From NCBI GenBank assembly GCA_023265625.1, contig JAHFST010000001.1, forward strand, positions 97,265 through 161,264: 64,000 bases of DNA. Reading direction: 5' to 3'. Of the stretch, positions 24,600 through 60,915 are shown piece after piece. Both the position numbers and the translations under genes were made by a program. Positions within the stretch are counted from its first letter, which is position 1. Each line of letters starts with the position of its first letter. A model generated the notes under the pieces. The model searched no databases, was not told the origin of the DNA, and saw only the letters and a list, made by a program, of their open reading frames with translations. Source of the DNA: Deltaproteobacteria bacterium. Its GTDB lineage: Bacteria; UBA10199; JACPAL01; JAHFST01.

Positions 24600-27500
24600 C
24601 TATCTTGTCTGTGTTGTCGTACCGGTCCTGGTGCTCGTGGTCCCGGTCCGGGTGGTGGTTTGGCGGGTTGTGGAGGTGTCTCGGGTGGGGGCGATGGTTG
24701 GTGTACTGGTTGTCGGGGTTGGCGTTGCGGTGGGGGAAACGCTGGGGGCTGCTGTTGGTGCAGTGGGTGCGACGGTTGCTGGAGCGCTGGCCTCCGGAGT
24801 GGCCACTTGAGGGGAGGTTATTGGTGCTGGCGCCGCTGCGGGTGTGGTGGGTGCCACAGAATTTACCGAGAAGATATCGGCTAGCGAATTGATCACCGCT
24901 TGATCGGCGGCGGTATCTACCGAGGTGGAAACCCGGGTGGAGAGGTCGTTGCGAGTTTGTTCCGGGATGGTTGTATCCGCCGAGATGGCTTCCTGGGTGG
25001 CGGTGACGACGATGTCATTCATCTGATCCTTGAGGCTGGCCCCGCCTTGCGTGGCCGCCGAAGAGACCACATCGTTGGCGCTGCTGGGAGCGGCGTTAGC
25101 CGCTGCCGCCTGATCTGTCGCCGCAGTTGGCAGATCTGTGACGGCGCTTGGCTGAGCTGTTACGGCATTGGGCTGAGCCGCCGCCGCTGGGTTGGTAATC
25201 GCCTTATTCGTGGCGGCTTCTGCGGATTGTTTAATTTCCTCGATACCCGCTTTGACCCCCTCTTGAGTTGCTGCGGCAATCGAACCCGCCAGGTCATTAT
25301 TGATCTTGCCTAAGACCTCTTGTTTGAGACTATCTTGTTGTTGCGGGGTGAGATTGGAGGTGGCCTCAATTTGTTTGCTGACATTCGTTTTGATGTCGGT
25401 CATGGCCCTTTGGCTGGTTTCTGCCAGGGCCCGGGCGGTGTCTTCCATCACCCGCTGCATCTCTTGTTGCTGCTGGATGGAAAGGACGACCTGCGGGCCG
25501 GTGGTCATCTGTCTCTGGAACTGCTCCACCACATTCACACGGATCTTCTCCTTGATGGCGGCGTCAATGACCCCGCCGCTGGTACGCAGCGCATTGGAGA
25601 GGTCTTGCAGGAACGGATCTTGGACCTTCTCGGGTACGGCAGTTGTACCGGCCGGGGCCTGGACTTTTTGGTCCAGGTTGCCGATATCCTGGGATTTTGC
25701 GCCGTCCTGGAAAGAGCTCTTCGGGACACCACCTGGGAAGGGGGGGATTGGATCAATGCCCTTGTCAGGTAAGCCCTCTTTTGTATCGATGATAGGGCTT
25801 TTGGAACACGCCGAGGACTTTGCCTCATAGGCCCCGAGGTCGTAGAAGCACCCCTGGGGACGCGTGACCTGGTCCAGATCTAGAATTGGATTATCAAACA
25901 TATACCCCTTGTATTCGAGGACCTGTTTGTATTCAGTTGTTTCAGAGTCCCCCTGGTCGATAGCGATTGAGTTGGCAATATTCTTGAGGTGATAATCACC
26001 CTTTTGATGATCAACGAAGTTTCCTGGGAAGTCGCTGTCGTATCCGAATTCATTTTTCTCCCCAGGGCTGTTTGATGTGATCATGCAGGTGTTCTTGGGT
26101 TCATCGGTTCCGAAGAAGGCATTGTGATGAATATTCTTCAGTCCCGTTATTTCCAGATTCGATGGGTTATGATGCATCGAACACACGGGACCGCTCAGGA
26201 GGTTGTTGAATATCTTAGGCATCGGTATCTTCTGGGTGGTTGGACTATCCTTGTACACCTTCTCAACGCATTGGTCGTATTGCTGGTAAGCGACGGTGTC
26301 GCATTGGTCGAGATATTTCTGGCACTGGAGTGTTTGTTCCAAATAGGGTTTAAGCACTGTTTTAGCATCAGATGACTTGATGGTCTCTGGGCAACCTTCG
26401 GGAGGGATAACAGCCGCAAAGCCAAAGAGATTCATGCAGGATAAGGCTACCCCTGCGTCTTCGAGCTTCTTGCAAGAGGAAATGCCTGTTGCATCGGGGT
26501 AAACGGCGAAGAGTTTCTCGTTTGAGCCAAGAAAGGCATCTCCCTTATTATCCTGACACTGGGAATCAACGGTGTTCTGCAGGAGATCGACGCCCGCATC
26601 CTGCAGCTCAACTCCGTGACAGGTCTTCTTGCCAAGGGCCTTGATCAAGTTGTTGGAAATAACGCGATTGCGGAGACCTGGGAATCCCAGGCCATGCCAG
26701 GAGACACCGTAGAAGTCCTGGTCCGCCTTGGCCGTTGCCTCGATCTTGTTTCGGTCGAGGACGAGGGTGGGGGCGTCTCCGGCCAGGAAGCGGGCGAGGT
26801 CCATGCAGCCCGTGCTGAGGCAGCTCGAAAAATTTTCCGTATCTTTGGAGCCGGGGATCGGACGCTCACATGTTTTACAGGCTGGAAAATCGGAATGTTT
26901 GGGACATTCATCGGGTCCCAACATCCAGCCAAGCTCGATCTGTTTGAGGCATTCGGAGAGGCTTGGAGTGGGTTCCTTGGGCAGGAAACTGGCAAGATAA
27001 TTGTTAGCCCAATCCTTGCAAGACCCTTCACCACGGAATCCATAAGTCTTCACAGCCTTTCCTCCCTCGATAGTATTACCCCGGATCAAAAAATCTAGGG
27101 GGGAGCAGGAGGCGGTTGAGACATAGATCCCGGTGCTGGCAACTAGCGAGGTCCCCGCGTGGATCTGGTTATTTTCCAGGACCGGCTTAGCCCTCTCGAG
27201 AGAGGACGACTTGATCTCCAGGGCGGTGCTGAACATGTTCGGGTAGGATGTGTTGGTGTTTCCTTCGATGGTATTGTCGCGGATCTGTGGCGATGCATTT
27301 TCCCCAATCTTGATCCCGGTCGGGGTGGCTATCGACGTGTCCTTATCCGGCAGATAAGCCAGGGCCACGATTTCGTTATGGGCGAGTGTGGGAGAGGCAT
27401 TGGCAATCGAAATGGGGACGCAATTTGCTCCGAATGTGAATGTGAGAGACTTGTCGGGTTTGAGCGTTATCCGGAAGCCGTCAATCAGGCTGTCCGGGCC

Positions 27501-30500
27501 CACGGGGGAGGGGACCATCGTGCTGTCGATTTGGAAGACATTCGTGTCACAAGAGGTCCCAACGATCTGGGTTGTGTAGCCCTTTTTGTCCGGAAGATTC
27601 GCGATGACAGATAGGTCAGGTTTGTTAGGGTCAACCTTCACATCCATCCCAGCAGCTAGATCGATGCAGAGAGGGCCGATGCAATTCTGTGCTTTCAGGG
27701 TTCCTTTTACTGGGGCCTTTGGTTCGTCTTCGTATTTTACGTACCGCATCAGGCACTGGTAGTTCTTGCTGTCCTGGGTGAACTTCTTCAGTTTGAAGCC
27801 ACCCCAGATTCGGGTTGAGGCCGGTAGCGTCAGGCCCTGCTCATGGTACTCATAAGACTCCTGCACATCGTTCCCTTGCAGAACGATCACATCGTAGGGC
27901 TGTTTGGTGCATGGGGTTTTGCAGGACTCGTAGGATTGTCGACAACTCGACTGCCAGGAAAAGGGACAGGAAATTCGGTCTTCAGTGCACTTTTGCTGGC
28001 AGGGCGCCGCTGCCGTCTGACAAAGTCCCGTTGGACTGTTGAGGCAGGCACCGAAGGCATTGTTGCAGCCTTTTAGGCACGGATAATACGTATCCGCGTA
28101 ACACGTCTTTAGCCCTGACGACAGGGGATCATTGGTGTCAGCGCACTCCTTTTTCATCGGTTGACAGGCCTTGTCACAGGTCTCCTTTGCCTGATCGCAG
28201 GTTGTTGACAGGAATTTGAGGCTGATATCCTTGCACTCTGGTTGATTGGCGCAGTTCTCTGTTTTACAGGTTGACTCCACGACATCGCAGGTGCCTGAGG
28301 TGCCAGCCTTGCAGCCCTCATATTTTCCATCGCAGTTTTGCTGGATCGCCTCGCAGAGGAAGGGGGGGGCATTGTTTTTCTGACGCTGTGTGATTTTGTC
28401 CAACGCATCCTTGAGACTATGGAACGGATTTCCGAGGGAGCCCAATGGTTCGGTAATATCCACTGCCTTATTGTAAGAGTTGTCCACTATGTCCAGCTTA
28501 TCGGGAATAATTTTGTCGATGAGACATCCGATGCCGACACAAGGAACGACCGCTTTTATCGGTGGTTTTGCGGTCACAAAGAAGGTGGTGCGCAGATTAG
28601 TCGGGATACCTTCCTGCAGGAGGACATTGTTGAGTATCTCCGCATGGGTCGGGTCCCAGACGGCATAATCCAACTTCCCATCCTTGTCGGCATCATATCC
28701 ATCCGGCTTATCATCATAGTTTGTGTCGAGGGTAGGGGGACAGGAGATAATCGCACACTTATTGTTGTTGATATCATAAACCTGTCCAGCGGGACAGGTG
28801 ATCTTGGCGGGATCTGTGCAGGTGCCGCTGTAGCAGACGGAACCACTGCTACAATCGTCCTTCTTGGTGCAGCCGGATTCCCCCGGAGACATTTTGCATA
28901 CCCCGAATTCGCAAATACCGGACTGACATTCCTTGGTTGCCTGGCAGGAGCTTCCCGCTGGTGACCCTGGGGGACATTGATCCGTCGCGTCCTTGGGACA
29001 CTTGTCTTCACTATCGGGGATCCCATCCCCGTCGGTGTCAATCCCGTTGGTGCAGGACCCACTGGTACAGGTTTGGCTTGGGGCACACTCAGAGACGGCC
29101 GTGCAGACCTTCTTTGATTTACCGACCAACTGGAAGCGCCCCTTGACCAGGTTCTGTTTGGCTCCGTTGCTCGTCTCGACCGTCAAGAGGGTATTGAGGG
29201 TGATGGGGGCGTCATAGGGTACGACCAAGGTGGACTGATAACCCTTCTCAGGAGGGGTGCCTAGATCGATGCACGCTGATTGGCCAGAGATTGTGACTGC
29301 GTTGTCACTCATCCCCGGATCTCCTACCTCCAGTGTTGCCGCCTGCGGGCAGACGCTCTTACCGTCTCGGTCAAAGAAGCGGACCTTGTAGAGGTACTCG
29401 CCCTGATTTGCCGTTGGTTCAACGGTCGGATAGGTAAAGTATAATTGGTAGGTGTATATCTGCATAGCCAAGCTGACGTCGATGGAATCGGTCTTGGGAT
29501 TGAGTGGGGAACCACCGCCGTAGCCGTTGTAGTCTCCCAGCAACTCGAGGTCGGGAGATACCCCCTTGCCATAGGAGGGCTGGGCCACCTTCTTCGGATT
29601 CTCCTTGTCTCCCTTATTGACATCGGAGGTGAGGGCCGAGACGTCATAGGGATCAAAGCCACCCTTCTTGGCCTGAGCGTTTTTATCGTCATCGCCGTAG
29701 TTTTTGACACCACCCGGATCGACAATGCCAGTACCGGCTGTAATCGCAGAGTCCGGTGAGAGTGTGGTACCGGCCGGAGACCCATCATCCACGACGAGAT
29801 TGATGGTCCCGGCAAACCCGGTCCAACCGGTCTTAACTTTATTGATGGGGATGATGGCCAGATCGACCATCCCGGTGGCGCCCCCCGAGTAGCCCCCGGC
29901 CACCACTAGTTGCTTGTTCGTACTATTGGGGATGAGTATTGCGTTGGCGCTTGGATTGCTGATCCCGGCGACGGGTATTGCCTTTGTGGTGTCAAACTCC
30001 ACGACGCTGGAATCATAGTTGATGGTAAACCCAAAGGTCTTGAGGGGTTTGTCCCCGACGTTGGCCCGGAAGGTGATATTTGGACCGTTTCCATTAGGGA
30101 TGACCGGGACAAAGCGGCCCGTTAAGGGACCCAGATCGAGATCGCCCACGTTGGCGTTCATGTTGACAGCGGCATGGTAGGTCAAGCTCTTGCTACCCAC
30201 AGAGAAGGTCAGTTTCACCGCCCCGTTTTTCTTTGGGGTGAGTTGCAATTGATCTGGTGGAAGGTTGGGGACCTCGGCGGATGGAGCGAGGGCAGGTCCA
30301 TCGTAGGCAGGCAGCGCCAGTTCGTCAATCTTTGTCGTCAGTAAGGATGTTTTGAAGGCGTTCCCATCCCCAGAGGTCAGGATCATTCGAGTCCCATCGG
30401 TGAATTTTCCAACGACCGTTAGGGGGTAGGAGGACTCGGCGACCCCGGAAAGGGTGGTGTCGAAGGCGACATCACCATTTGTTACTGGGAGCGATTCGTT

Positions 30501-33500
30501 GTCGAATCCCTGGAAGCCCTTTTCCTTGGGAACATTGGCACCCAGGTTGGATGTCTTGCCCCGAATGATGAACCCATCGAGGGTCGTGTTATCAGGCTTG
30601 CCTGGTTCAGGCTTGGTCTGGAAGGCGACCTCTTGCTCTTCAACGGTTAGTCCCAGGGTGGCATTGAGTTCCTTCCCAACGAGGGGTGGGAGAAACTTAA
30701 CTAGAATGTCCCCCGATTGACCCTTACTCCCATCGAGTGCGAAGCTGCCCGGCCATTTTGAATTGGAATTTCCATTGACTGGGATAGGTTCCGTAAAACC
30801 AGCGGGTACGGCGAGACTCGCCTTATCAGTTGGCAATTTGGCGGCCTCGTCTCCCCCAAGAAATATCGAAGACCCATCGGTCCATTGACCCGTGACGACC
30901 AGACGTAGCAATTGTTTCTTGTCATTCTGCCCTTCAATCTTTGAGAGGGTTGTATCCTTTACGGCATTGGCAAAGGTCCCATCCTTGGCAGGATTGTATT
31001 GGGGGAGTTTGGCCGGGTCGTAGTCCTCGTAGGTCTGGAGTGAGATCTTGGTGAGGGTATTCACAGGGAGTTTGCACGTCTGTTTCGGGATCCCCAGATA
31101 GTCGGGCTGGAGCTCAATCGTGACCCAGCCACCATCTGATGGTGGTGGGGTGTCTTGGACCTCCACCGTGTTAGTACTGGCCAAGACCTTGGCCGGTTGA
31201 CCGCTCAGATCCTTTCCGTCAATCGTCTTGATGAGGTTGGCCCCTTCCGTGACGACGTACTTGATCTTCGCTGGGTCCACCACATCCTGCTTCACTCCCT
31301 GTTTCAGAACCAGTGGACTGGTTGTTTTGAGAGCCAAGAGTTTCGCAGAGGCATCCTCGGTGCTGAGTGCCAGGGGATCACAGCCAGTGAGGGTTGCCGC
31401 AGGTGCCGGGATATTGATGGCGACCGTTGCGGCACCCTCTATGCCCTTGCCAAATTTGGCGGAAACATTTGTGGTCTTTTTGCCTGAGGTGGCCGGATGG
31501 ATCATGAGTTGGCCGGAGGCATTGACGTCGACTTTGATCACGGAGGGATCACCGATGGTAAGCAGTGCCGGTTTTTGCTGATAGGCCGTCAGGAAATTTG
31601 CAGTGACGTCATAACGGGAGTTGTCCTTGGTTATGAGCAACAGGGTAAGAGGGGTGCTGTCATCCAGAGAGGTGAAGGTGTTGAAGGCCATGGCCTCCAA
31701 GGTGTTTTTCTGGCTGACGTCGCCGGTCAGGGCCCCGAGGGTTGCGGGTGATTCGGTCTTGGTCATTTTCACGTGGGCTGGGACGACTAGGAGGGATTTA
31801 AAATTCTCACTCTCTGCTGAGACGGTCAGCTCTTTGGCGGCAATGGTTTTGTCTGCAACAACGATGCGGATCTCGGCTTTTCCCGACTCGAACGGGCTGA
31901 TGAGTCCTGCCTCCGTCACCGTGAAGACAGCTTTATCCGGGTTCTTGAAGGTCACATAGGGTGTGAGATCAAGGCGGATCTGGCCGTTATTCCAATAAAG
32001 ATGCGCCTGCACCTTGGGGTAGGCATCGTTCCCGTCCAGGTTGAGACCCTTCAGTTTGGGGATGGTGTCTGTTTTGGAGTCGGTTTCGACGATCAGCTTG
32101 GCCGGGTCTATCGAGGTGACATGGACTTGCATGTTGCCAACCGATTTTCCCGCATAGGTGGCGGTGAGATTGGCATCGCCTTCTGCCTTGGATTTTACCT
32201 CACACTTGACATCTGTCCCGACGGCGGTTGCACCGGACTTGTCTTCACACTTGAGGTTGTTTAGGTCGGCCCCTGTGATGAGGTTCATGCTTCCATCGTT
32301 TTCCACCTTCAATGTCCTGACCACGGTTGTTTGTGGGACACTGGCAGGGAGGACCAGTCCTGGAATCTTATCGTTCGAGAAGAGTTGGCCATTTTCAACA
32401 AATCCCAGGATGCCGCGAACTTCTTTGTTCAGGACGGCGATATTTCCCGTACCCGGTCCGGACTTATCGGCAATGAGTAGGGGTTGTTTCTCTCCCGAGA
32501 GCGACTTCTGTGCCGGATCGGTGTAGTACAACTGATTGGGTGTTCCTGAAATTGCGGTCGTCGCCGGGAGCGGTGTGGCTGTGGATTTAACCCGGAGGTG
32601 GAGGGTCGCGACTTTTTCTTTATTCGATGAGATCAGGAGATTGCCTGTGGCTGCGGAGGTGAAGGTGATCGGGGTGTTGAGGCTGATACCCTCAATGTCC
32701 CCGAAGCCTGTCGCAACCTCGATGGGTTTGGTTGCCTTCGGATCAAATTCGATCATGGTGCCATCAAATTTGATTTCAAACTGGAATGCTTGGAGACCCT
32801 TGCCCCCCGTATTAACGAAGAGGTCGGCAGCGAAGGATTCACCGGCTGTGAGGGGACGCTTGGGTAGTTGAATCCCAGCCTGGCCAGCGGTCAATTGCAG
32901 GTCCCCAACGATCCCCTTGAGGGTGATGTTTGCCGGGTCACCCGATGCTTGCAGGCTGTTCCCGTCGAGTTTTAACTTGACCGAGACCATTTTATCCAAA
33001 CCTGGTTCAAAGAGGGAGGGATCGAATTTGATGTCGCCACTGTAGATCCCCGGTTGTTGAGTCACACTGAGGGGGTTCGAGAAGAGGGTATTGCTATCCT
33101 TGGTGATTTCAGCCTCAGGGAGTAACCCACCCTGGTAAGGTCGGCCATAATCGTCGGTTACCAGGGCAAAGACCTTGACGGTGGGCAGATCGGAGTAGAC
33201 GTCGCCACGGGCCAGGATCACCTGGGCCCGGGTGGCGGCGCTATTCAGTTTGATCTCCAAGGGCTTGCTGTCTGCGACATTGCCACCTGCGCTGGCCTTG
33301 ACGGACACAGTCCCGGGTAAGGCCAGGTCTTCGAGGAGTCCCTGGTAGGTCCCGCCTTTGCCGGCTTCCTGCCACCAGAGTCCATCCCAGAAACCGCCGA
33401 CGAAACCGTCGGTTCGGCTTGGGGTAAAGGAAACATGTGCCCCACTGACCGGGAGGGCACCCTCTAGGAGATTACCCAAAATCTTGATGGTGACTGGAAG

Positions 33501-36500
33501 GGTGGACTGCTGAGCTTGAGCGTCCTTGGCGATGAAATTAAGATGGTAGGTTGTTCCTTCAGGCGCCCCCGTGGTGTTCCAATTAAATTGACCTGTCGAT
33601 GGGACAAAGGCTGTGTCTGGGACCTTGTTCGTGTCGCTTGCAACCTCGTTCCAAGAGAGGCCGGCATTACCCGCCGCCACCTGGAAGGAAACGATGGCCC
33701 CTGCGGCGACCTCGTAGCTGGTCTGGGTGGGCGAGGTGAAGACGGGGAGTTGATTCTTGATTGTCGCATCCGGGCAGAAGCCGTCCACCGGTGGTTTTTG
33801 ATCCGGGCAGGAGGCAGCCATGCAATTGGGTGGTTGCGCAGCATCACAACATTGATTTGCATCGTAAGTCTTGTCGGCAGGGCAGCTGGTGGGTATGCAA
33901 CCGGCCTTGCCAGCGACGACCTTGCAGGTGGTTCCGTTACAGGTGATTAAGGAACAGTCTTCGGGGGGCTGGCAGCTGCTTCCATCAGCGTTGCAGCACT
34001 GCTTATTGATCGGGTCAAACTGCATGGCCTCCGGGCAGGTATCATTTTTTTTGCATTGTTTGGTGTCAGGCTGGTAGGTGGTGTCTATCGGACAGGTGCC
34101 GCAGTAGTCGAAGAGACCGTCGGTTGGGATGCTGTTGTCGATGGGATTCAGGCCCCCCTGACAGCCTGTTGGATCCTTGCTGCAGTCACCGCTGGCATCA
34201 CAACACTTGGTGGCCTGTCCGGCCGCCCCTTTGCATGTCAGCCCCACATCACACACGATTCCGTAACAATAGTCGACGGCCTCTGGATTGATGGTGACCT
34301 TTTTGACCGGACCTGAGCTTAGGTATTCTTCCATCCAAAGATTTTTTCCTTGGGCGTCAAATTGACTGATCCTGACCTTGACGTTGAGTGTGGGCAATTT
34401 GGGATTGAGATCCGATTTGATAAATTCGTAGACCCCTTGTGCCGTGTCCGCTGTCCCCACCAGCTTTGCCTCGACCGTCTGCTTCAAGTCTTCGAGGATA
34501 AACTCCACCTTGATATTTTTGTTGATCGATTTCGAGGGTTTTGCGCCGGGGCCGCTTACCGTAGCCGTCAAACGAATGGTGCCGAGGTTATTCTGATAGG
34601 GGTATTGAGCGTCAACATCGACCCACAAGGCATTCCCCACCAGGATCTTTTGCAGGTATGACGTGTCGTTCGAATCGACGGCTCCGTTAAAATCGGCGTC
34701 GGCATCGTAGAGGGGAAATTTTTCCGGGGTGACACTGTTGGTCACGATGGCGTTTTGGAGGCTCTGGATGTCATCGGAGGAGAAGCCTTCGATACTGTTC
34801 ATATCCGCTCGCCACCCGCCCGGTGGGTCCATTTCGCCCATCCCGGCGACAATCGGTCGTCCCTCCACGGGGATTGCTGCGCCGATGGGGTTGTTATCCG
34901 GATCATAGAGGGCCTTGATGATCCCTGACAGCTTGGTGACCTGTTTTTCTTGCTTGGTCGGGATGAATTTGATCTGAGCAATCTCCAAGAGGCCTTGTTT
35001 TTTGTTGAGCCCACCGGAGAAGGTGCTGACGATCTTGATGGTTCCAGTATCGGGGTCGGCACCCGGTGTGAAGGTGTAAGCGGAATTTTGGAGATCCTTC
35101 CCAGGGAGGATGGAATTACCAGGTTTGCTATAATCGGCGATCTTGAGAACGTCCTTATCGTATAGGATCTGGATCTCAAAGTTCCCGAGCGGTGTTTTGT
35201 CGGTATTAACCCGAACGGGCAGCGTAAATTCGCCGCCGGACTGGTCGGGGAAGGGGACTCCCAATTCTGGGCCGATGTCGATATCGCCCACGGTGGGGGT
35301 CTCGTTGATGGCCAGCTTGAGTTCCTCTTTGGTATCCAAGGTGAGTTTGTTGCTTGGATTGATGTTGGCACTGAGCTTGACGGCGCCATTTTCGTGTGCG
35401 GTGAGTGTCAGTTTGTTGTTGGCCTCACTCAAGGTGGCAAAGTCCTTCAATTGATACTGATTAGGGGGGCCGGTCTTCAGATCACCGGCCGTGACATCCA
35501 GGAGCCCCGGGACTTCGATGGTTCCATCGTCACTACGGACCAAGAGGGCCTGGGTAGCGTCCTTGTCATACTTGGTAATAATGTTGACGAAGTGTGGACT
35601 TTCATCGGAGGCGCTCAAGGTCTTATCGGTCAGGGGAGTGACCTTGCTATTGCCCGCGGTGAATTCGTTGCTTTGAATGTGGAGCTCACTGATGTCGTCC
35701 GGTATGGGATCGATTGTGAGCTCCAGGGACTTTTTCTTGTTATCGTAACCTTGCCAACCCAAGGCAATGGTGGCCTTGTTTTCATTCGTATCCGGGATGC
35801 CGCGCACAAACATCCTCGGTTTGTTGAGGGTTGCCCCACCGGTCACATCCAACTGGAGTGACACGTTGTCCTTGAAGGGGGTGAGGTCGAGGCTGTCACC
35901 GTCGGTCAGAATAGCCTTCGCCCAGAGCCGGACCCATTGGTAGGCGCTGGATTTGGCGATCTTGTGCAAGGTTGTTTTCGCTGGTGCGTTGTCATTCTCG
36001 GGGTAGGGGGCGAGGGTCTTGAGCTCAAACCCTTGGAGTGTCACAATATCAATAGTCAATTTACGAGCCAGTCCCATAGCCTTGATGTTTAGGGTGGCGG
36101 AACCGCTATTTTTGGCTCCCTGATTCATCATCAGGGTCAGCGCTCCGTTAAGATCGATAAAAAATTTCGGGCTACTGACATTGGGTAAGGCGCTCATGGT
36201 AGGTTCGGCCTGCTCGGTGACATCGATTTCCTTGGATCCAAATTTGGCAAAGATCTTGAAGCTTTCTTTGGTGGAGTACTGTTTGAGGATTGTTACAGGA
36301 TCATTCGGCGACAGGGCCAGTTTTAGATTTTTTCCTACCGGAATGATCTCGTTCGTTGGGACCTTTTTCAGGATTAGCTCTCCAGCGGGAGGGATGACCT
36401 CGACCAAGGTGTCACTATCCGTGGCAATTATTTTTGTTGGGTCGTTCTGGTCCGGCAGCTCCGCCTTCAGGTGGACTTTGCCTGGCAGGGTGGAGCTTAC

Positions 36501-51500: not shown

Positions 51501-54500
51501 CAGGCTGAGTCCCGCTTGTTTCAGTTGGACGAATTGATTTGCGGTCAAGATCAAGGGGGCATTAGGGACACCGGGAAGGTCATCGCTCCAGACCGGTCGG
51601 AGGGTGAGTCTGCCCCTTTGGAACCGGTCCGCCTGGTTGGCTCCCTCGATCACCCGAAACAGGAAGGCGCCGTCTTTCTTGGGCTGGGCGACTGCATTTT
51701 TGAAACTTGCGGGGCCTCCGAGGTCAAAGTCCTCCCAGACCTCCATCTTGAGATCCTTGAGGGTCACGACCTGAAATTCACAGGTCTGCGGGGTGACGCC
51801 GAAGAGTCCGCCGACGTCGAGCTCCAGTTTGACCGGTCCGACCCCGGTCCCTTTGCTGGTGACCGTGACCTTTCCAGCCAGATCCGGTGCTCCCACGGTG
51901 ATAAGGTCTCCTCCAGAGATTGGAGTGACCTTCACAAGGGGGAGGATGGTCTTTGCGTTGGTCTGAACGACGAGGGTAGCCGTGGTCGGAAGTCCGCGCA
52001 GGAGTGCGGATGCATCCCCCGCCGTAACCGCCATCCCTCCCGTCGGGCACCCCTGATTCGGATTGAGATCCGGTTTGGGGATGTCAATCACTACCTGGTT
52101 CTGGTGGGGAATCTTGAGCGTCTCCCCGAGATTTTTCAAGTTGGCCCGGACGAAATAAGGTTTGTCCCCGTTGGAGGCGAGCGCCTTGATCCGCGTGTGG
52201 GTGTTGTCGGTGAATGTGGCAAAGGGCTGTGGATTGCCCACCTCGTCAACCAGCGAGATCTCATCCGGTGAGAGCAGGGGAGTGATATCGCTCCAAATTT
52301 CCTTCCCTCCCTCGTCAAACAAGGCCCAGAAGCTGAGCGGGACCTCTTGGAACGGTTGTGAAAGGTAATTAGTGACCGTCGCTAACCCCTCTCCCTTGCC
52401 AAAATTGGGATCGGTCCCATCAAGGATGGAGAGCGGAAGAGGTGGCTTAAGGTCGACATGCCCCGGGATGGTGACATAGATGGTGGCGGGCTGTTTTTCC
52501 ACCTGCGTGATGGCAATGGTGGTTTTGGTTGCGTTGACGGGGTTTCCGTTCAGTGTAACCACCACGTTTTCGCTAGATTCTGCCCCAGGCGCCCCCTTCA
52601 CGCCGATCAGCGAACCATACAGGGGATTTGCGGCATTGACCTGAGAGAGAGAGAGAGAGTTCGAGACCTGGAGTCCGATCTTGGCAAGTCCGGTAAGGTT
52701 GATTGGCTCCACCGCGCCGCCGAAATCGGTGTAGACAAAGGCGCGGGCGGTCTGCCAGAGGGACGGGTTGACCCCGCTGAATCGGTCCAGGGTGGTGTCA
52801 CTCACAAAGAGTTTGATCTGATCGGAGGCCAGTTTCCAAGCCGTCACGCCAATCCCGTCAAAATTCTGTGCGTTGTTGTAGACCGCTTTCAGGGTATCGT
52901 TGCCGCTCTTGGCGACGCTGTAATTTCCCTGATCGGTTTGGATGACTTGTCCTAATGGGATGAGCGAGATGGTCTTTGCCGAATCAGGATCGAAGATCCC
53001 CTTGCTGGTGACCACCCGGAGTTCCACGGAGGAGGCCTTGGGGGGTGCGCCGGCCAGGGAGAGATCGATCAGGTAGCTGTCCTTGGCCCAGGCGAAGATT
53101 CCGCGGTCGACCACTGGCTTGACGGTCACCTGGCCGGAGGCGTCGGTGACCCCCGTCTGATCGGCCACGGAGAGGGTAGCCGAACCGTACTCGGGGAAGT
53201 TTCCTCCCGTTTTGTGGTAGAGGGTGGCACCCCCTGTGGCGGTTGGTGTGACGATGGCCATCACCTTCGGATCGACTTGGACGGTCAGGAGGGCAACCTC
53301 GAGTTTTGCGCCCGGCCCGATCGTGTCTGGGCAGCTACTTGTGAAGGCGACGGAACCGGTATTCAAACCGTTGGGTGTATAAGCCTGGAAACAGCTGGCA
53401 TCCTTCCCCTTGTTGATCTGCGTGACGGTCAAGGGGGGAGTAAAATCAATCTTGAAAAAGAAGCTGTGGAGGTTCTTATCTCCCGTATTGACATAAAGCG
53501 GGACGGTGAAGGTCTCACCGGGAAGCAGCGGGCGTTGCGGGAGCTGGATCCCGGCGGTCTCTGCGGGGAGCTGGAGTAGTTCCTTGGCAGGGATGAAGGT
53601 GATCGGGACCTGCTGGGCCGGGTCGAGTTTGATGGCCCCCTGGTTGGCCTGGACACTCAAGGTCCCGTTTTTGGAAAATAACATCTCCTGTTGGTAGAGA
53701 CCGGCGGTCGTCTTGGTGGCGTTACCGGCCGGTTGGCCATCCACCAGAAACTGAACGGAGTCGGGATCGACCGGCCGTCCGCTGCTGTCGGTCACAAAGG
53801 CGAAGGCCTTGATCTTTTCTCCACCTGGTGCCGATGATTCCGGCGTGTAGACCTCGCCCCGATTGGTCAGGAGGTGGAGCTTGGCCGGTGTCCCCTTGAC
53901 CAGCCAGGGTTGTGGCACGGCGGTCCCGCCGGCTGGGATGGTGGCCTGCAAAAAGGCGGAACCGGTCCGAGCGACATCCAAGATTTTTTCTTGATAGCTT
54001 CCGGCCTTTTCCTGAAGCCAGAAGGCCTGATGGGGACGTCCCAGATCGGGATCCTTGCCGGCGATGTCTTTGATCGCGAAGTCGAGCGTGGCCCCCTTGA
54101 CCGGTGACCCCTTCACGGTGGATCCTTTGGCGACAACATTGATGGTGAAGGTGACGGTGATCTTGTCTTTCGGTTTCCCGGTTGGATCCAAATCATTGAT
54201 GGTGAGGGTGAAGGTTTTTTCTCCCAGGTCCTCCTGTGTGACGGGCCCCCAGGCGAAGACCCCAGCCGGGGTGATTTGAGCCTTGATCCCTGGTGGCGGG
54301 GTCACCTCGAAGAGGAGCCCATCCTGGTCAGGATTCAATGTCTGGGCGCCAAAATCGATCGAGACGGTGGCGTCAACTTCAAAAGGTCCGAATTTTTTGG
54401 GGCCCTGATACACGGGGAGTTGATTGGAGTTCGGGAGTTGGCAGCTGCCGTTTATCTCTCCCACGGGGATGTTGCAGACCTCTTCCCCTTTGCAGTCCTC

Positions 54501-57500
54501 TTTCTTTTGACAACTTCCACCCCCTTGGCAGCTTCCACTCACGCAGACTTGCCCTGGACATTCACTCGAATCCTTACAACCGGTCCCGCCAGCGCATTGA
54601 CCTGCCACGCAGGTCTGGGTCCCGGCACAATCGGCAGGCTTTTGACAGGTTCCCCCGCCTTGGCAGGTCTTATCGACGCAAATCTGGCCGAAGTTGCACC
54701 CATCCGCGCAATCGTTGCCTCCAGTGCAGCTTCCCTGGAAGCAGGTTTGGGGTGCGACGCAGTCGAGCTTCGAATCAGCGCAGGTGCCGCCGGAGCAGTT
54801 ACCATCAGGACAGGATTCGCAGGTGCCGGTGGCGTTGCAGAGCTTGCCGGCGCCGCATTGACCGTTGACGGTGCAGGAGAGGGCGCATTGCCCGGTGTTG
54901 AGATCGCAGCTCTCTCCGAGTCCCTTGCAAACAACCGAGGTACATTTATTTTTACAAATTCCATCCAGGGGATCGCAGGTGTCCCCCGCGGCGCAGCCCT
55001 TGCCGGCACAGAGGTTGGGTAGGTCCGCACACTGCCCGGTGGCGGGGTTGCAGACGAGATTGGCGGGGCATGGTGGCTTGTCAGTGCAATTGTTTTTGCA
55101 GACCCCCAAGTTATTTTCCACGAGACAGATCTCTCCCAACGGACAGATCTTTGCCTTACAGGGGCCGTCCTGTCCCGTGGCACCGTTTAGCACCTTCTTG
55201 TCAAAGTCTGTGGGGGGGAGGTAGACGACGTTCTTGTCCTCTCCCGTCTTGGTGAGTGACGAGACCTTGGCCTCGAAGGTGCAAGTGTCGTTGGATTGCA
55301 GATTGAGCTTGAACTCCAGGCTACAGTCGACCGGATTGAAGACGCCACCGCTGCTGTCGGTATATTCCTTACTGGCGTCAGGGTTGCCAGGGCAGACGGC
55401 GCTCAATTTTGCGGCCACGTTTTTGGCACATTCGAGCTTGTCTGGTCCGCTTTGATCATTCTTTGGTTGGCCCAATTTCAGGAAGACGCTGTATTGACCG
55501 CCTCCGTTGTCCTTGATGCTCAGGTCGGAGAGGAAGAAGACCTGGTTCACAATCTGAAGACAACGGGTGACATCCCCCAACTCGAGGAAGCCGTCCGGAT
55601 AGTAGTCGGCCTTGGAGGCGGGGACCTCCCCAGCTGTAATTTTGTAGGGAGGGGAATAGGTCGAGAGGAGCCCTTGTTGGAGTTTGAGACAATCGAAGCC
55701 GGTCAGTTTGTTATCCGCGTCAAAGTCCCAGGCCGTGATATCCAGCACATCCGGATCGACCAAGCCGGCACCCGCGACAATTGGACGTGGGAGGTTACCG
55801 CCGATCGGTTGATTGCCCGGGTCGACCAGGTTGAAGACCGTACCGGTCATTGCGGCGATCTTGGCCGCGCCCTTGGTGGCCTGGAAGGTAAGGGTGCCGA
55901 GCGTGACCATTCCGTCTTTATCCCCGGTGGCGGGGGTGCCGAACAGGCCGTCGAGCAGGACGGAATTGCCTTCAATATTTGGCGAGACCTTGAGTGAGGG
56001 GTCACCGGCCGGGACAAACTTGACCACCTTCAAGACCGACGCCGGGTTCCAGGCGAACTCGATCTTAAAAACCGACAATTTTTTATCTCCCACCTTGACG
56101 CGGACCGGTGCGTCAAAGGTTTCTTGATCCGTTAAGACCGGAAAGAAGCGTCCGCCGATCTTGCCGAGGTCGACATCTCCGACCTCTGGGAGGAGATTCA
56201 AGGCCAGCGGGTAGTCCTGGTTGGCATTGGCGCTCTTGGCGGTGATAACGGTCCCGCCGTTGCCGGTGATTGTTACCGTCCCTAGTGCGAGGTCTTGCCA
56301 TTTCGAAAAGCTGTTGTCCTCTTCGGGCGTGTTGGCATCATTGGGAAGGTTAAGATTCTTTTTGGAGAATTGGATGATTCCCGGGATGACCGGTCCGGTG
56401 GTATCGACCAGGCGCGTCCGTGTCCCGTCCTCAAAGGTCCCGACGACCCGGATCTGGCTCTTGCCACCTACCGGTCCCGAGAGGGTGTCTTTAAAAGTTA
56501 TTTCATCCGACGCGCCGATCCCCTCGGTGCCGCGTAAATGCAAGGTCGCCAAGGCCTCGGCCTCCCCGACGATCTGGATGGAATGCTCGCTCTTGAGAGA
56601 GCTTTCCCCCTTGGCCCCCACGCCCGGATAAGTTGCCTGGATGGTAAAGGTCGCGACCTGTTGCGGCAGGATCCGCCAGACATTGTTTTCTTTCACGACC
56701 TTGAAGGGGTTCGCGATCGTCTGGTCTTTCATGCCCTCGTTCAAGGTCAGTTTGCTTTCCGGATGATTCAAGAGGTCGATTTTTGGGTAACCCGGATCGC
56801 TCCACAGGCCACGGACGGTGAGCCGTCCCTTTTGCCACTCCGCGCTCGCTTCCACCTTGGAGAAGAGGGCGTCTTCAATATTTTTGCCATCGATCGCGGG
56901 GGTGAATTGACCCGCGTCGCCTAATTCCTGCGCGCTGAAATCCTCCGAGGTCTTGATCTCGAGCCCGGTGAGGCCCAACACCTGAAGATTGGTGGAGGCT
57001 ACGAAGGAACCACCGGGGAGGCCGCTGATCGAACAGCTGAGGGTGACGACGCCGGTGGCGGTGTCGGTCGATTCGATGTTTCCTTTTTGTGGCAACGTCA
57101 CCAGGTTGCTCGAAGGGGCACAGGTGGTCTGCGCCTCTTGCGTCGCATCCCAGGTCCCGCCTCCCTTGAAGTGGACGATCACCTGGTAGGTGGTTCCGGT
57201 TGGAATTTTTTCCATGGTGGCGGCCGGGTCGGTTGCGTTGATGGCGATGTGTGTTGCCCCCAGTTTGACCTCAACATTGTCCGCATCGGGGACCTTGACC
57301 TGGACGCCCCCTTTGCCGATTTTACCGGTTGCAGTATGAGTGGCTGCGATCACGGTGGCCCCCGGTCCCTTCGGTTTGATGACTGTAATCATTTTTTGCT
57401 GCTCATCGGTGAGGGGGACCACGACGGAGTTATTGTCGCTGGCCAGGGTGATCTCGGAGCCGACCAGGGAGGTGAGGTTGAATTTTTTCACACCGTCCGC

Positions 57501-60500
57501 CTCGGCGGCATATCCCCAGACCTCGACCGGCGCGGTGTCGGCCATCGAATCGATCTGATTGGTGACGTAGGCGAAGGCCTCGGTGGTCCCTGCATCGAGG
57601 TTGGTCACGGGCGAGGGGTTGATGGCATTCCCTTGGCCCGATTTGCCCAAGAAGATGGTGGCCGGGACCAGGACCTTGAGATCGGTCAGCGCGACTTCTT
57701 CATCGGTGCGCGCGACGGTCTTTTGCTGCGCCTCGGGAAGCCCCGGGACGGAAAGGGTTGTTGGCCCGTTCTTTGTGCCCGGGATAATCTTGCCTTTTTC
57801 CACGGTTGCCACCGCCGGGTCGCTACTGCTCCAAGCGGCGTACGGGGCGAGGTCAATCTTGAGCCCTGGGGTGTTGGGGTCGCTCCAGAGGAGTCGGGCC
57901 CGGGTCTGTTGATATTGATTGGAACCTTGAATCTTGTTGAGGGTGAGATCTTCCAGCTCTAAGGATAGATCCTTCGGGTCGGCCACGGAGGAGGTAATTC
58001 GCACCCCTCCTTGCGAGAGTCCGCTGAATGTCGCCTTGAAGAAGTCTTGCCCGCCCTTGGCTGGGGCGTAGCCAGCCCCCTGCAAGGTCACGATCCCGCT
58101 GTTGGCCCCTGCATAAGCAAACGAGGTCTTTGCGGTGACATCGTCGGGATCGGAGATCCGATTGTAAAGGGCCCGTGCCTGGAAGGCCCCTTTGACATTG
58201 AGCGAAGCGGCCAATCCCCCCTGGTAAACATGTTCACGGTCGGCCCAGGCCAGCAGGGTCTTGAGCTGTTGTTCAATAACTTTAATACTCCCTTGGGGAG
58301 TCTCACCCGCGACGTTGCCCGTGAGGTCGGCGATGCGGAGCGGTACTCCTTGAACACCCAGGCTGGTTCCTTTTGCGGCGAGTTTTTGGAGCTGGATCTT
58401 CTTGCCAGAAAAGGCCTGTTGCGTGCCCCCCTTGGCCTCCGGTGTGACTTGAAACAGGATGGTTGCCAGTTGGAAAAATCCCTTGGGGCTTGCGGCGTTC
58501 GGGGCTGGGTTGGTCGCACTGAAACTTAGTTTGCCTGGTTGGAGCAGATGATTGTTGTCGTCCGGGGTCCAGGCGAGTGGCCAATTGACCAACGTGATTT
58601 TGGGGAGACCTTTTTGCGTGACGGGGGCGACTAGGTCCTTGCCGAAGTTAATTTCTACCTGAAAGCCGTTGACCACTTGGTCTAGGCCGCCCTCTTTGGC
58701 GTTAACCCAGAGTTGGACCGGAAAGGTCTCGCCGGGGAAATGAGGTTCTTGGGGAATGACCAGTCCCATCTCTCCTTCGGCCAAAACAATCGGTTCCGCC
58801 CGTTTCGCCAACACCAGGTCGGTGGAGACCGGCAGCATGTTGGGGGCTGAGACGGTTAGTGTGCCGGGACGATCAGTGTCATTCTTGAAGGCGTTTTGCG
58901 GGACGGAGAGGGCTTTGTAAAAAATCCCCTTGTCTTTGTAATCGGCCGAGAGGTTGATCAGACCGGCCATGGGCACTCCGGAGACCGAGAGCGTGAATTT
59001 CACTGCGCCGCTGCTGCGCTCATCCAGCGGTCGTCCGGCGGCATCCCGCAGGAAGGCGTAGGCCACCACGGTTGGCTGCGAGGCGTAGTATCGAGGGAGG
59101 CCGCCTGAGTCGTCCCCTTGTAGCACCAAATTGACCTGGGTGGGGAGCGTGTCCACAGAGACATTTTTGGCAGCGGCGGTTTTTTTGCCGGCGGGGATCT
59201 GGGCGTTGATCGCATCAAGCGCGACATCGTTCAGCCCATAGATGGTCCCCTGATAGTTTCCTTGCCCTGCCTCTACGAGCAGGTTGGACCAGAGCCCCAG
59301 GCTCGGGAGAAACTCGATCGGGACCCCCTCCACCCCTTCGCCAAAACTCTCCGGTGCAAATTTTACGACGATCAAGATTTCCTTGATGCCGCTTCCCCCC
59401 TTGCCGTCGCTCAGGGTCAGTTGGGCGGAGTAAGGATCGGCCGATACCTCTTTGGCCTTGGGTTTCCAATTAATTTTCCATTGAGTGCCTTGGTCGGTCT
59501 TGGTGGGCGACGAGAGCTCGGCACTCGTTCCTTCCAGGCCGCTAAGCAGCAGTTCCAGGGTGTCGTTGTCTGCATCGGTTGCGGTGAGCGTCAATTCATT
59601 GTCTTGATCGGCGAAGAATTCAACCCCGCTGGGCGCGGTCAAAATCGGGGCGTGATTGGTAGGGGCGACGGGTGTGACGCAGACCCCGGCGGTCAGGTCG
59701 CAGACCTGGTCAGGCCCACATTTTGTCAGATCGGTCGCCGAACATTCTCCCTTGGTCTCATCAGCATCTTTTACCCCGTCTCCGTCATCATCATCGTCTG
59801 TGATGTCCGGGATCCCATTGTTGTCATCGTCGGTGTCAATGTTGTCGGGGATCCCGTCTCCATCGGTGTCTTGGTTCCCATCGTCGATCGGCCCCTTGCT
59901 GACACAGACATGGTTTTCACTGCACGCGAATCCCTCGTTGCACATACTGTCTTCCGTGCAGTCCTTGCCGCCGATGGCGCATTTCAAGTCGGGTTGGCAG
60001 CTTTGCTTTTCAGGGCAATCATTGTGTTCCGCGCAAACCTTGCCTCCGGGGAGGCAGGTGCCGTTGGTGCAGGTGGTGCCGCCTGTGCATGTGTCGAATT
60101 GACTGCAGGGCGTGCCTCCCTGAATGCAATTCTCCCCGGAACAAAAGGAGCCCGAGGCACATTGGCTGTTTTTGCTGCAGGTCCCGCTGGAAGAGACGCA
60201 ACTGCCGTTGGAGCAGGCCTCGCCGATCGGGCACTCTCCGGTGCTTTTGCAGAGCGAAGCGGCCACCTGGCAGATTTTACTGGAACAAAAATGTCCCTGC
60301 GGGCAATCGCTGCTGATGATGCAGCCCTTTTTACCTTCGATGAAGTCAGGGGGCAGCGGCGGGGCGCAGGCCTCATTGATACATTGGGAACTGTCTGCAC
60401 AGTCCTGAGCGGTATGACAGGTCGCCTGACCCGACTGGCAGACCTTGCCCGAGCAGTAGGCCCCGGTGGGGCATTGGCTGTGAGTTGCACAGGGAATCAC

Positions 60501-60866
60501 GGGTAACCAACAAAAACCAGCCAAACATTGTTCCGAGGCACGACAATCGCTGACTTGCTTACAGGTGCGAGATCCCTCACCTGGATCACACGCAGAGCCA
60601 ATTCCATTGTTATTTAAATCGCTTTGTTCCGAATTTGGGAGGAGGGGGCAATTGTCCGTGGGATCGACGATACCATCGCCATCGGTGTCATTTTTGAATT
60701 CATTAGTCCCGATGATCTCGGACCCGGGGTTTTGCGCGTTGTCTGAACCACCGTCTTTCGAACAACTACAACCGCCCCCTTGGGCGGACATCTGTCCGGA
60801 GAGGAAGAGAAAACCGTTCCCCAGTAAGAACAGCAATAAAATTTGTCGTGCTATCCGTGCTCGCAA
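24600..60866 (-). CDS. Giant secreted modular protein, 12,088 aa. Signal peptide, cysteine-rich repeats, thrombospondin type-3 Ca-binding repeats, many cohesin-like and Ig-like beta-sandwich modules, dockerin-like modules, a C-terminal right-handed beta-helix, a Q-rich coiled segment and a Pro/Thr-rich tail.
   Basis: Single uninterrupted 36,267-nt frame. TTG start with RBS. Domain motifs read from the translation. Confidence 0.9.
24603..24900 (-). repeat. Low-complexity Pro/Thr/Ala-rich C-terminal tail of the giant protein. No LPXTG, PEP-CTERM or RTX motif.
   Basis: [15 protein letters not shown]...[19 protein letters not shown] at the end of the ORF. Confidence 0.7.
25815..27700 (-). other. 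Right-handed parallel beta-helix (PbH1-type) domain of the giant protein, ending with a DLGAYE motif
   Basis: [25 protein letters not shown] and NRVISNN rungs. Terminal [10 protein letters not shown]. Confidence 0.6.
27950..29110 (-). repeat. Cys-rich knot 7 with thrombospondin type-3 repeats
   Basis: C-codon-dense stretch. [17 protein letters not shown] and [15 protein letters not shown]. Confidence 0.6.
33770..34280 (-). repeat. Cys-rich knot 6 (no TSP3 repeats)
   Basis: [16 protein letters not shown]...[14 protein letters not shown]. Confidence 0.6.
34625..34860 (-). other. Two-segment dockerin-like Ca-binding module: (GF)[13 protein letters not shown] and [24 protein letters not shown]
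   Basis: Reverse-complement codons read directly. DxDxDGxVDxxD loop followed by a helix, twice. Confidence 0.55.
38430..39200 (-). repeat. Cys-rich knot 5 with a thrombospondin type-3 repeat cluster (at least 6 repeats)
   Basis: [37 protein letters not shown] and similar repeats. Confidence 0.7.
39510..39700 (-). other. Two-segment dockerin-like module: [22 protein letters not shown] and [18 protein letters not shown]
   Basis: Reverse-complement codons read directly. Confidence 0.55.
43780..44510 (-). repeat. Cys-rich knot 4 (no TSP3 repeats)
   Basis: [40 protein letters not shown]... Confidence 0.6.
48960..49870 (-). repeat. Cys-rich knot 3 with a thrombospondin type-3 cluster
   Basis: [40 protein letters not shown]... 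Confidence 0.7.
54430..55170 (-). repeat. Cys-rich knot 2 (no TSP3 repeats)
   Basis: [27 protein letters not shown]... through ...GSCQLP. Confidence 0.6.
58670..58762 (-). other. Example A-type cohesin-like module core ([31 protein letters not shown]). At least 5 further copies follow later Cys-rich knots.
   Basis: Pattern LPxRPLxPGETFxVxLxVNT...F.F.I.FD recurs through the protein. Confidence 0.5.
59680..60700 (-). repeat. Cys-rich knot 1 with flanking thrombospondin type-3 repeats, at the N-terminus of the giant protein
   Basis: [25 protein letters not shown]. About 10 CxxxxDCxxGxxC units. [22 protein letters not shown]. Confidence 0.7.
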
Positions 60867-60897
60867 AAGACACCCTTGCCCTTTTGCGGCTTAATAG

Positions 60898-60915
60898 AAG
60901 CAAGAAATGTGCCAA
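60898..60915 (-). promoter_or_regulatory. Sigma-54 (RpoN) -24/-12 promoter TTGGCAC-ATTTC-TTGCTT for the giant gene
   Basis: Exact TGGCAC-N5-TTGC spacing on the minus strand, ~45 nt upstream of the TTG start at 60866. RBS AAGGGCAAGGG. Confidence 0.6.

Follow-up and report, generated by a model that had tools for sequence, protein, structure and literature searches.

A 12,088-residue, putatively secreted bacterial protein is built from six old copies of a twelve-domain unit with cohesin-like and dockerin-like modules

We analyzed a stretch of 64,000 nucleotides (the window) from a bacterium labelled Deltaproteobacteria (assembly GCA_023265625.1, contig JAHFST010000001.1, positions 97,265 to 161,264 of the forward strand); positions below are counted from its first nucleotide. 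Between 24600 and 60866, a single gene on the minus strand encodes a protein of 12,088 amino acids, here called the giant protein. It consists of six colinear super-repeats, each ~1,700 amino acids long and made of twelve domains, which are mutually 21 to 26% identical. An earlier note on this DNA had described a domain grammar that is coherent over the whole length, and the six colinear units bear that out. However, the note missed that the protein is six old copies of one unit and that orthologs differ in unit number. Rather than a run of short repeats, the giant protein is a series of six conserved twelve-domain units.

Self-comparison and cysteine density revealed a strict periodicity, with six cysteine-free bodies of ~1,500 amino acids alternating with cysteine-rich spacers of 160 to 400 amino acids. 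The six bodies align colinearly end to end. Hidden Markov models (HMMs) of the modules gave the order within a unit as spacer, Big_9/cadherin-like immunoglobulin (Ig)-type domain, pair of Big_1-like Ig domains, cohesin I, Ig-like mid region, cohesin II-dockerin, and final Ig-like domain. The spacers contain, depending on the unit, the disulfide-rich DUF7107, calcium-binding thrombospondin type 3 (TSP3) repeats, or both. The Big_9/cadherin-like domain is present in units 1, 2, 4, and 6, and a TSP3 array takes its place in units 3 and 5. Each mid region is ~600 amino acids long, with about six Ig-like (BIG-type) domains. Cohesin-like and dockerin-like modules stand at 2:1 in each unit, which makes 12 and 6 in the whole protein. 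Three parts follow unit 6, namely a cysteine-rich region that contains one TSP3 loop, then a right-handed beta-helix, and finally a tail that is first Gln/Ala-rich and then Thr/Pro/Ala-rich.

Individual features were placed on the window as follows (residues first, then nucleotides, all on the minus strand). A GGGCSCS motif lies directly after the signal peptide (30 to 36; 60759..60779). In the N-terminal spacer (44 to 372; 59751..60737), TSP3-type calcium-binding loops at residues 44 to 95 and 330 to 372 flank a cysteine-rich DUF7107 array at residues 96 to 330. The body of super-repeat 1 (396 to 1905; 55152..59681) then runs through Big_9 (404 to 505), an Ig-like pair (505 to 690), cohesin I (692 to 876), the Ig-like mid region (876 to 1535), cohesin II-dockerin (1535 to 1800), and an Ig-like domain (1770 to 1905). 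After cysteine-rich spacer 2 (1900 to 2145; 54432..55169), the body of super-repeat 2 (2140 to 3675; 49842..54449) repeats this module order, with Big_9 at 2148 to 2250, cohesin I at 2430 to 2595, and cohesin II-dockerin at 3293 to 3570. Spacer 3 (cysteine-rich, 3665 to 3850) continues into a TSP3 array (3850 to 3975; together 48942..49874) that matched cartilage oligomeric matrix protein (COMP)/thrombospondin in the PDB at 1.7e-27. It precedes the body of super-repeat 3 (3975 to 5455; 44502..48944), which lacks Big_9 and has a Big_1-like domain at 4065 to 4117, cohesin I at 4160 to 4319, and cohesin II-dockerin at 5034 to 5341.

Cysteine-rich spacer 4 (5450 to 5700; 43767..44519) matched DUF7107 with 29.8 bits. 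The body of super-repeat 4 (5695 to 7235; 39162..43784) carries Big_9 at 5700 to 5800, cohesin I at 5975 to 6165, and cohesin II-dockerin at 6880 to 7149. Spacer 5 (cysteine-rich, 7225 to 7290) again continues into a TSP3 array (7290 to 7480; together 38427..39194), which matched COMP/thrombospondin-2 in the PDB at 6e-35. The body of super-repeat 5 (7478 to 8870; 34257..38435) is without Big_9, and its cohesin I is at 7663 to 7839 and its cohesin II-dockerin at 8500 to 8772 (34551..35369), the copy that was modelled (see below). Cysteine-rich spacer 6 (8865 to 9035; 33762..34274) leads to the body of super-repeat 6 (9030 to 10590; 29097..33779), with a Big_9-like domain at 9038 to 9135, cohesin I at 9322 to 9491, and a cohesin II-dockerin with degenerate dockerin loops at 10213 to 10499. 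The C-terminal cysteine-rich region (10590 to 11000; 27867..29099), which contains the single TSP3 loop, matched no family and is homologous only to a relative, P0002 (see below). The beta-helix region (11000 to 11700; 25767..27869) has a Pfam Beta_helix match at about residues 11182 to 11270 and a weak choice-of-anchor-Q match at 11631 to 11682. The tail (11700 to 12088; 24603..25769) is Gln/Glu/Ala-rich and then Ala/Thr/Pro-rich and of low complexity, with a basic Thr/Arg run at the end, and it contains no membrane segment and no known sorting signal.

Every domain class that the earlier note had listed (cohesin-like, dockerin-like, TSP3, cysteine-rich, Ig-like, and beta-helix) was verified, the dockerin at the level of the family profile only. 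The note had also proposed HMM searches, and these were positive except for single dockerin copies (see below). Pfam TSP_3 scored 76 to 80 bits in each third of the giant protein, and the TSP3 arrays matched COMP/thrombospondins in the PDB at 1e-27 to 6e-35. There are about 16 TSP3-type calcium-binding loops, in five clusters. Cysteine-rich spacer 1 was identified as DUF7107 (49 bits, in four stretches), and the cysteine-rich spacers are also Dickkopf_N-like. Big_9 scored 26 bits in unit 1 and was below threshold in the remaining units. The Beta_helix match in the C-terminal piece had 28.6 bits (cutoff, 25.9), and DUF1565 had 34.8 bits in a homolog, P0007. The profile of the mid region, built from 15 sequences, matched residues 198 to 353 of a Bacillus inaquosorum teneurin-like protein (E = 9e-15), a stretch within its predicted N-terminal adhesion domains (residues 1 to 397; BIG-type in the scheme of the source paper). 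It also matched the Big_2 domains of LigA/LigB, at ~3e-6.

Pfam Cohesin (PF00963) scored 63.7 bits in the C-terminal third of the giant protein, against a cutoff of 24.1. We aligned 40 cohesin II-dockerin sequences from the giant protein and its relatives, and used the alignment both as a profile and for AlphaFold2. The resulting model of residues 8500 to 8772 had a mean predicted local distance difference test score (pLDDT) of 85.3 and a predicted template modelling (TM) score of 0.68. In Foldseek, the best match of its beta-sandwich was the non-cellulosomal cohesin of Archaeoglobus fulgidus (2xdh; E = 5e-8, TM score of 0.72 on the target). Some 50 further cohesin structures matched at E values of 5e-8 to 5e-5 (target-normalized TM score up to 0.73). 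In sequence, identity to cohesins of known structure is only 12 to 20%. Cohesin I and the cohesin part of cohesin II are homologous. Cohesin I scored 21.9 bits against Pfam Cohesin in unit 5 and 39.4 bits in the matching repeat of the ortholog P0005. A type I dockerin consists of two ~22-residue segments, each with an EF-hand-like calcium loop and then a helix. The 40-sequence profile matched type I dockerins of known structure at E values of 2e-9 to 1e-5. This match is at profile positions 187 to 248, directly after the cohesin part (50 to 177), and the AlphaFold2 model has helices at model residues 198 to 209 and 233 to 243. In a profile of the six bodies, the only dockerin match in the PDB was weak (E = 0.23). 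Read from the sequence, most positions of the EF-hand-like D-x-D/N-x-D/N-G...D loops are kept in units 1, 2, 4, and 5.

The gene is real, and it encodes a 1.28-MDa protein that bears a Sec-type signal peptide and is otherwise without a membrane-spanning segment. The open reading frame (ORF) listing gave one ORF of 12,088 codons plus stop with a TTG start, as the earlier note had read it, and in our own translation of 24600..60866 the sole stop codon was the terminal one. The chance probability of 12,088 stop-free codons is ~1e-252. In each segment of the frame, GC content is highest at third codon positions (GC3), followed by first and then second positions, and the values fall within those of the flanking genes. 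The predicted product has a pI of 4.7 and 309 cysteines, almost all of them in the spacers and the C-terminal region, and its composition is extracellular in type. The start that the note had proposed also stood. An AAGGG ribosome-binding motif lies 6 nucleotides 5' of the TTG, at the end of an AT-rich intergenic region of 128 nucleotides (60867..60994, minus strand) in which we found no convincing sigma-70 promoter on the minus strand. One public gene call (12,078 amino acids) uses an alternative in-frame TTG, at codon 11. The upstream TTG gives the more orthodox signal peptide, because it includes the basic n-region (RARIARQ). The signal peptide (residues 1 to 28; 60783..60866, minus strand) continues with a hydrophobic core and an MSA/Q boundary. 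In a Kyte-Doolittle scan of the whole protein, residues 5 to 27 were the only hydrophobic segment. We therefore assign the protein a Sec-type signal peptide and, beyond that, no membrane segment. Two antisense ORFs on the plus strand, at 42525..43472 (315 amino acids) and 59262..60506 (414 amino acids), are most likely not genes but shadow frames that a long, GC3-rich gene produces.

A very improbable alternative is that the gene is an artefact or dead, as a chimeric mis-assembly or a gene without full-length expression. All assemblies that we found appear to be short-read metagenomic, and the full-length product is a prediction from sequence. However, the locus occurs in two further assemblies, located by exact-match look-up of the downstream neighbour protein, and the gene has the same length there. 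It encodes 12,088 amino acids on a 39-kb Logan contig (SRR14366772) and, in the gene call that starts at codon 11, 12,078 on a 343-kb ENA contig (ERZ27296333). The earlier note had asked that collapse or expansion of repeats be excluded. Tandem Repeats Finder reported just four trivial 21-nucleotide arrays in the gene, and a direct-repeat search found none above ~75% identity (the longest is 118 nucleotides, at 72%). Collapse or expansion is therefore implausible, because there are no near-identical DNA repeats to mis-join and the protein units are only 21 to 26% identical. The codon-position GC pattern is uniform over 36 kb, the stop-free frame would hardly arise by chance, and the domain order is colinear in six of six units. 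Furthermore, the unit is also present in a syntenic ortholog and in hundreds of relatives. GC3 is ~0.71 in units 1 to 3 versus ~0.65 in units 4 to 6 and the C-terminal region, and the boundary matches that of the stretch colinear with P0002 (units 1 to 3 plus the C terminus). A foreign origin of part of the gene was rejected, since both levels are within the range of the flanking genes.

To find relatives, we ran an exhaustive HMM search of public metagenome proteins with a 1,138-position profile that spans cohesin I to the dockerin. This returned 557 representative relatives at E ≤ 1e-3, with 58 at E ≤ 1e-30, from a library that seems to stop near 8,000 amino acids, so that relatives as long as the giant protein would be invisible. 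Among the best hits, full units numbered one in P0007 (2,407 amino acids), two in P0005, P0003, and P0006, three in P0002 and P0004, and four in P0001 (7,894 amino acids). A source name was present for 4 of the 20 relatives that we looked up, and all four were named "hypothetical protein." Three of these named relatives (MBM4370529.1, MBM4370040.1, and MBM4371162.1) are from one metagenome-assembled genome (MAG) labelled Deltaproteobacteria. The unit thus defines an uncharacterized family. Other searches were negative. A contig scan of 185,579 species genomes with a 1,096-amino-acid segment found no relative, and the two closest genomes by IspH (see below) have none within 10 kb of that gene. 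A word-indexed search with the C-terminal 1,111 amino acids or with a 7-sequence cohesin-dockerin alignment gave no match, and this method evidently misses the family.

The ends of the protein also recur in relatives. A GGGGC(S/G/T)C motif stands right after the signal peptide in P0001, P0002, and P0007, and P0005 has a variant. In P0004 the motif is instead at the extreme C terminus (...GGGGCSCSVCTQ); it is always terminal. It may be a site of covalent attachment or metal binding. The beta-helix region is strongly shared with P0002, with weaker matches in P0005, P0007, P0001, and P0003, and the tail of P0002 is similar in composition to that of the giant protein.

An ortholog in conserved gene order was found on a Logan contig (L083/L084; SRR22387938). 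The order there is CoaC, giant gene, Zn-phospholipase C, uracil-DNA glycosylase (UDG), GAF-GGDEF, SpoIID, QueA, and IspH, which matches the window, with flank proteins that are 45 to 70% identical. The giant gene at this locus encodes P0005, which has 4,254 amino acids and two units. Therefore, orthologs differ by whole units, two in the syntenic P0005 versus six here. In a neighbour-joining tree of 36 full-length units, which is crude and has long branches, units clustered by type across proteins and not within proteins. Unit 1 paired with unit 1 of P0002, unit 2 with unit 2 of P0002, unit 3 with unit 3 of P0002 and unit 2 of P0005, and unit 5 with unit 1 of P0005. The duplications are old, because unit types are common to several proteins and unit identity is only 21 to 26%. 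Later evolution appears, from these sequences, to have proceeded by gain and loss of units. Recent tandem expansion was considered and rejected on the same two grounds.

The product of the neighbouring ispH gene is 64 to 69% identical to its counterparts in MAGs that NCBI labels Deltaproteobacteria or Pseudomonadota, which include a complete 2.75-Mb genome (CP064976.1). Identity to every other GTDB species is at most 58%, and to Omnitrophota MAGs it is 51 to 55%. By this single marker gene, the host would belong to an uncultured lineage that NCBI labels "Deltaproteobacteria," and not to Omnitrophota.

The giant gene is embedded among housekeeping genes. Upstream of it on the minus strand are CoaB and CoaC, the two halves of the usually fused CoaBC, as separate ORFs with a 4-nucleotide overlap (DFP/CoaB, 60995..61708; Flavoprotein/CoaC, 61705..62268). 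At L084 the two are ~20 kb apart, and only CoaC is directly upstream of the giant gene. A split CoaB and CoaC seems normal for this lineage. Beyond them, a 541-amino-acid ORF (62337..63962, minus strand) has the highest GC content of the window (0.62) and matched nothing in Pfam or NCBIfam. Directly downstream of the giant gene is a gene for a DUF4143/AAA_14 ATPase (23227..24534, minus strand). It is not at L084, an identical 435-amino-acid protein is encoded on seven public contigs, and the gene is probably a lineage-specific insertion. A HAMP-GAF-GGDEF diguanylate cyclase follows 3 kb downstream of the giant gene (20093..21601, plus strand). The position of GGDEF is conserved at L084 (24317..25402), and there is a PilZ gene ~4.7 kb downstream of the homolog P0004 (locus L086). 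Control of the giant surface protein by cyclic di-GMP is possible, but the GGDEF linkage may mean nothing, because the whole housekeeping block is syntenic. QueA (18186..19004, minus strand) has 272 amino acids versus 331 at L084, and its Pfam match is in two stretches. The SpoIID gene overlaps the QueA start by 4 nucleotides, and the short QueA may reflect an internal deletion or a mis-called start.

A complete cluster like those for type II secretion systems (T2SS) or type IV pili lies 10 kb beyond the 3' end of the giant gene (21..14452, plus strand). It encodes a GspE/PilB-like ATPase, a GspF/PilC-like protein, four prepilin-type proteins (GspG/H- and PilV-like), PilX_N, a possible GspK-like protein, an ExeA/PEP-CTERM-type AAA ATPase, a TPR protein, PilM, PilN, a PilQ/GspD-like secretin, and a TPR-SLT transglycosylase. 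All scored below the NCBIfam equivalog cutoffs. Between this cluster and the housekeeping block is a small PIN-domain/MazE-type toxin-antitoxin pair (14473..15249), identified by the Pfam tags of public gene calls. As an exporter of the giant protein, the cluster is a speculative candidate. No such cluster was found in the flanks that we examined at three homolog loci (L084, L085, and L086), and a functional link between cluster and giant gene is speculative for that reason.

We lean, at somewhat better than even confidence, to the following overall account. The giant protein would be a real secreted giant of six old units, acting as a calcium-stabilized extracellular adhesin or scaffold that uses cohesin-dockerin pairing, a role suggested by its domains. 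After Sec export, it would form a long, acidic fibre, stabilized by Ca2+ and disulfides, that a diderm cell either displays on its surface or releases from it. Its 12 cohesin-like and 6 dockerin-like modules could bind each other in cis or between molecules and so form bundles or a matrix, and the cohesins in excess of dockerins could engage other proteins that bear a dockerin. Reach would come from the Ig-like stalks, and the terminal beta-helix might be the part that makes contact with a glycan or a ligand on a surface. The number of units, two in the syntenic ortholog and six here, would set reach and valency, which would then differ between related organisms.

Several observations weigh against this account. 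We infer cohesin-dockerin binding in the giant protein from homology only. Single dockerin copies reached at most 12.6 bits against the Pfam (PF00404) cutoff of 22.9. In unit 3 the first dockerin loop looks degenerate, as do both in unit 6, and some or all of the dockerins may have lost binding. Domain scans and hydropathy found no LPXTG, SLH, PEP-CTERM, type IX secretion system (T9SS) C-terminal domain, lipobox, or C-terminal membrane helix in the protein. Anchoring as a lipoprotein was also considered and rejected, since no lipobox is present and the distance from the hydrophobic core to the cysteines is 9 to 20 residues in all homologs. A dedicated secretion system beside the gene was likewise rejected, since none adjoins it here or at L084, L085, and L086. 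Pfam scans detected no enzyme or carbohydrate-binding domain that would hint at a ligand. The earlier note had proposed structure prediction for each module, and this succeeded for cohesin II-dockerin. However, the AlphaFold2 model of a 1,096-amino-acid segment, with an alignment of the six internal copies only, had a pLDDT of 38 and was unusable. Most Ig-like assignments therefore rest on sequence profiles.

A more specific form of the favoured account is that the unit is a self-complementary building block, which combines two cohesins and a dockerin covalently fused to one of them with ~10 Ig-like spacers, so that proteins of one to six units would zip onto themselves and one another in a calcium-dependent extracellular lattice or fibre. 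We hold this tentatively and think it doubtful as a whole. It would give an uncultured diderm lineage a protein-only "Velcro" coat, capsule, or tether, and the addition or loss of whole units would adjust its reach and valency. Covalent attachment, by disulfide or lipid, would be at the conserved terminal GGGCxC motif. A different use of the same modules, which we think unlikely, is an enzyme-recruiting scaffoldin, in which the 12 cohesins mainly dock hydrolases whose dockerins are encoded elsewhere, in a cellulosome-like degrading machine on a diderm cell. The ratio of 12 cohesins to 6 dockerins would suit such a machine, the cohesin fold is nearest to scaffoldin and non-cellulosomal cohesins, and there is a GH113/metallophosphatase gene near the ortholog at L084. 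However, the giant protein has no carbohydrate-binding module (CBM) and no catalytic domain, and no dockerin-bearing enzyme is encoded within the 64-kb window. Because every cohesin II has its own dockerin covalently attached, self-association fits better than enzyme docking.

Size and dockerin and TSP3 content are shared with the "Dockerin-type giant proteins" of Omnitrophota, and the giant protein might, like them, tether a predatory or episymbiotic bacterium to its prey or host, with export via the nearby T2SS/type IV pilus-like machinery. In favour of this idea, the GspE/GspF/pseudopilin/PilMN/secretin cluster (21..14452) is 10 kb away from the gene's 3' end, T2SS-like loci have been reported beside giant genes (bioRxiv 10.1101/2023.11.21.568195), and the complete genome with the most similar IspH is small, at 2.75 Mb. 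We nevertheless regard it as quite unlikely. The host is apparently not Omnitrophota, housekeeping genes lie between the cluster and the giant gene, and at three homolog loci the flanks that we examined are without a comparable cluster. The giant protein also lacks a C-terminal membrane anchor, a SecA-like domain, and a C39 peptidase domain; no Pfam match to SecA or C39 was found in any piece of it at E ≤ 0.01. We give almost no credence to an RTX-type giant adhesin of the LapA/SiiE/MpIBP kind, exported by a type I secretion system (T1SS), which is contradicted by the features that we tested. Giant size, Ig-like repeats, and calcium-binding motifs are what such an adhesin would have. An adhesin of that kind would also end in RTX repeats with a T1SS signal, lack a Sec signal peptide, and have ABC/MFP/TolC genes beside it. 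However, the giant protein has an N-terminal Sec signal peptide and no RTX/HemolysinCabind repeats, its calcium-binding motifs are of the TSP3 and dockerin type instead, and the window contains no T1SS genes.

Cohesin-dockerin interaction is otherwise mainly known from cellulosomes. If the pairing is re-used in diderms for giant self-assembling surface structures, its known uses would be wider, and new orthogonal cohesin-dockerin pairs would become available for protein engineering. If the self-complementary units do form a lattice or fibre, this would be the first cohesin-dockerin system mainly for self-assembly of a giant structural polymer and not for enzyme recruitment. The locus itself offers a clean, fully assembled bacterial protein of >1 MDa outside Omnitrophota, free of repeat-assembly ambiguity.

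The earlier note had taken a size above 10,000 amino acids as a mark of rarity and implied that the combination of modules is unique. The analysis did not support this. One Omnitrophota-centred survey lists 5,761 proteins of at least 10,000 amino acids, the longest of 147,155 (10.64898/2026.06.07.730766), so that size by itself is no longer exceptional. Bacterial proteins of >5,000 amino acids repeatedly contain Big_9, cadherin-like, and Dockerin_1 domains (PMC11573180). Dockerin-type giant proteins rich in dockerin and TSP3 domains have already been described in Omnitrophota (West-Roberts et al. 2023, bioRxiv 10.1101/2023.11.21.568195), and metagenomes contain the 557 representative relatives of the unit. 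Like the giant protein, those of Omnitrophota, its nearest described counterparts, have many dockerin-like and bacterial TSP3 calcium-binding repeats and are mostly extracellular. A long N-terminal part without membrane segments, a proposed attachment function, and T2SS-like neighbours are comparable as well. However, the Omnitrophota proteins have at least 30,000 amino acids, versus 12,088 here. At their C termini they have membrane anchors and then SecA-like domains, and they carry discoidin, DUF1080, GNAT, and a CBM35-like barrel flanked by dockerin helices. The giant protein has instead a cleavable-type signal peptide with no other hydrophobic segment, true cohesin modules fused to dockerins, and a beta-helix end (compared by description). 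It may work like the Omnitrophota giants. Yet it should not be filed with them, because the C-terminal anchor or SecA-like domain and the Omnitrophota host were not found.

Cellulosomal scaffoldins (e.g., Clostridium thermocellum CipA and Acetivibrio cellulolyticus ScaA/ScaB) resemble the giant protein in having tandem cohesins and a dockerin on a long secreted chain, and the cohesin fold and dockerin profile match these best. They differ from it in host, which is a diderm here, and in anchoring, since the giant protein has no SLH, LPXTG, or sortase features, and Pfam found no CBM family over its whole length. Long Ig-like stalks stand between its cohesins, whereas scaffoldins have short linkers, and it has one dockerin per unit, six in all, whereas scaffoldins have one terminal dockerin. 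On these CBM and anchoring grounds, the giant protein is not a cellulosomal scaffoldin, and it is not an RTX adhesin either. The A. fulgidus cohesin protein has both cohesin and dockerin modules on one chain. Its non-cellulosomal cohesin (PDB 2xdh) is the best structural match and an example of cohesin and dockerin outside a cellulose-degrading context. However, proteins of that type are small, with a single pair, whereas 12 cohesin-like and 6 dockerin-like modules are strung along the 1.28-MDa chain of the giant protein. Ig-repeat adhesins (Leptospira Lig, invasin/intimin, and teneurin-like proteins with N-terminal BIG domains) share the BIG/Big_2 match with the ~600-amino-acid mid region of every unit. 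They are without cohesin-dockerin modules and super-repeats, and their lipoprotein, beta-barrel, or T1SS anchoring is not seen in the giant protein. The novelty lies in the twelve-domain super-repeat, with two cohesins for each dockerin, and the uncharacterized family that it defines, in the variation in unit number between orthologs, and in the occurrence of such a protein outside Omnitrophota without a membrane anchor.

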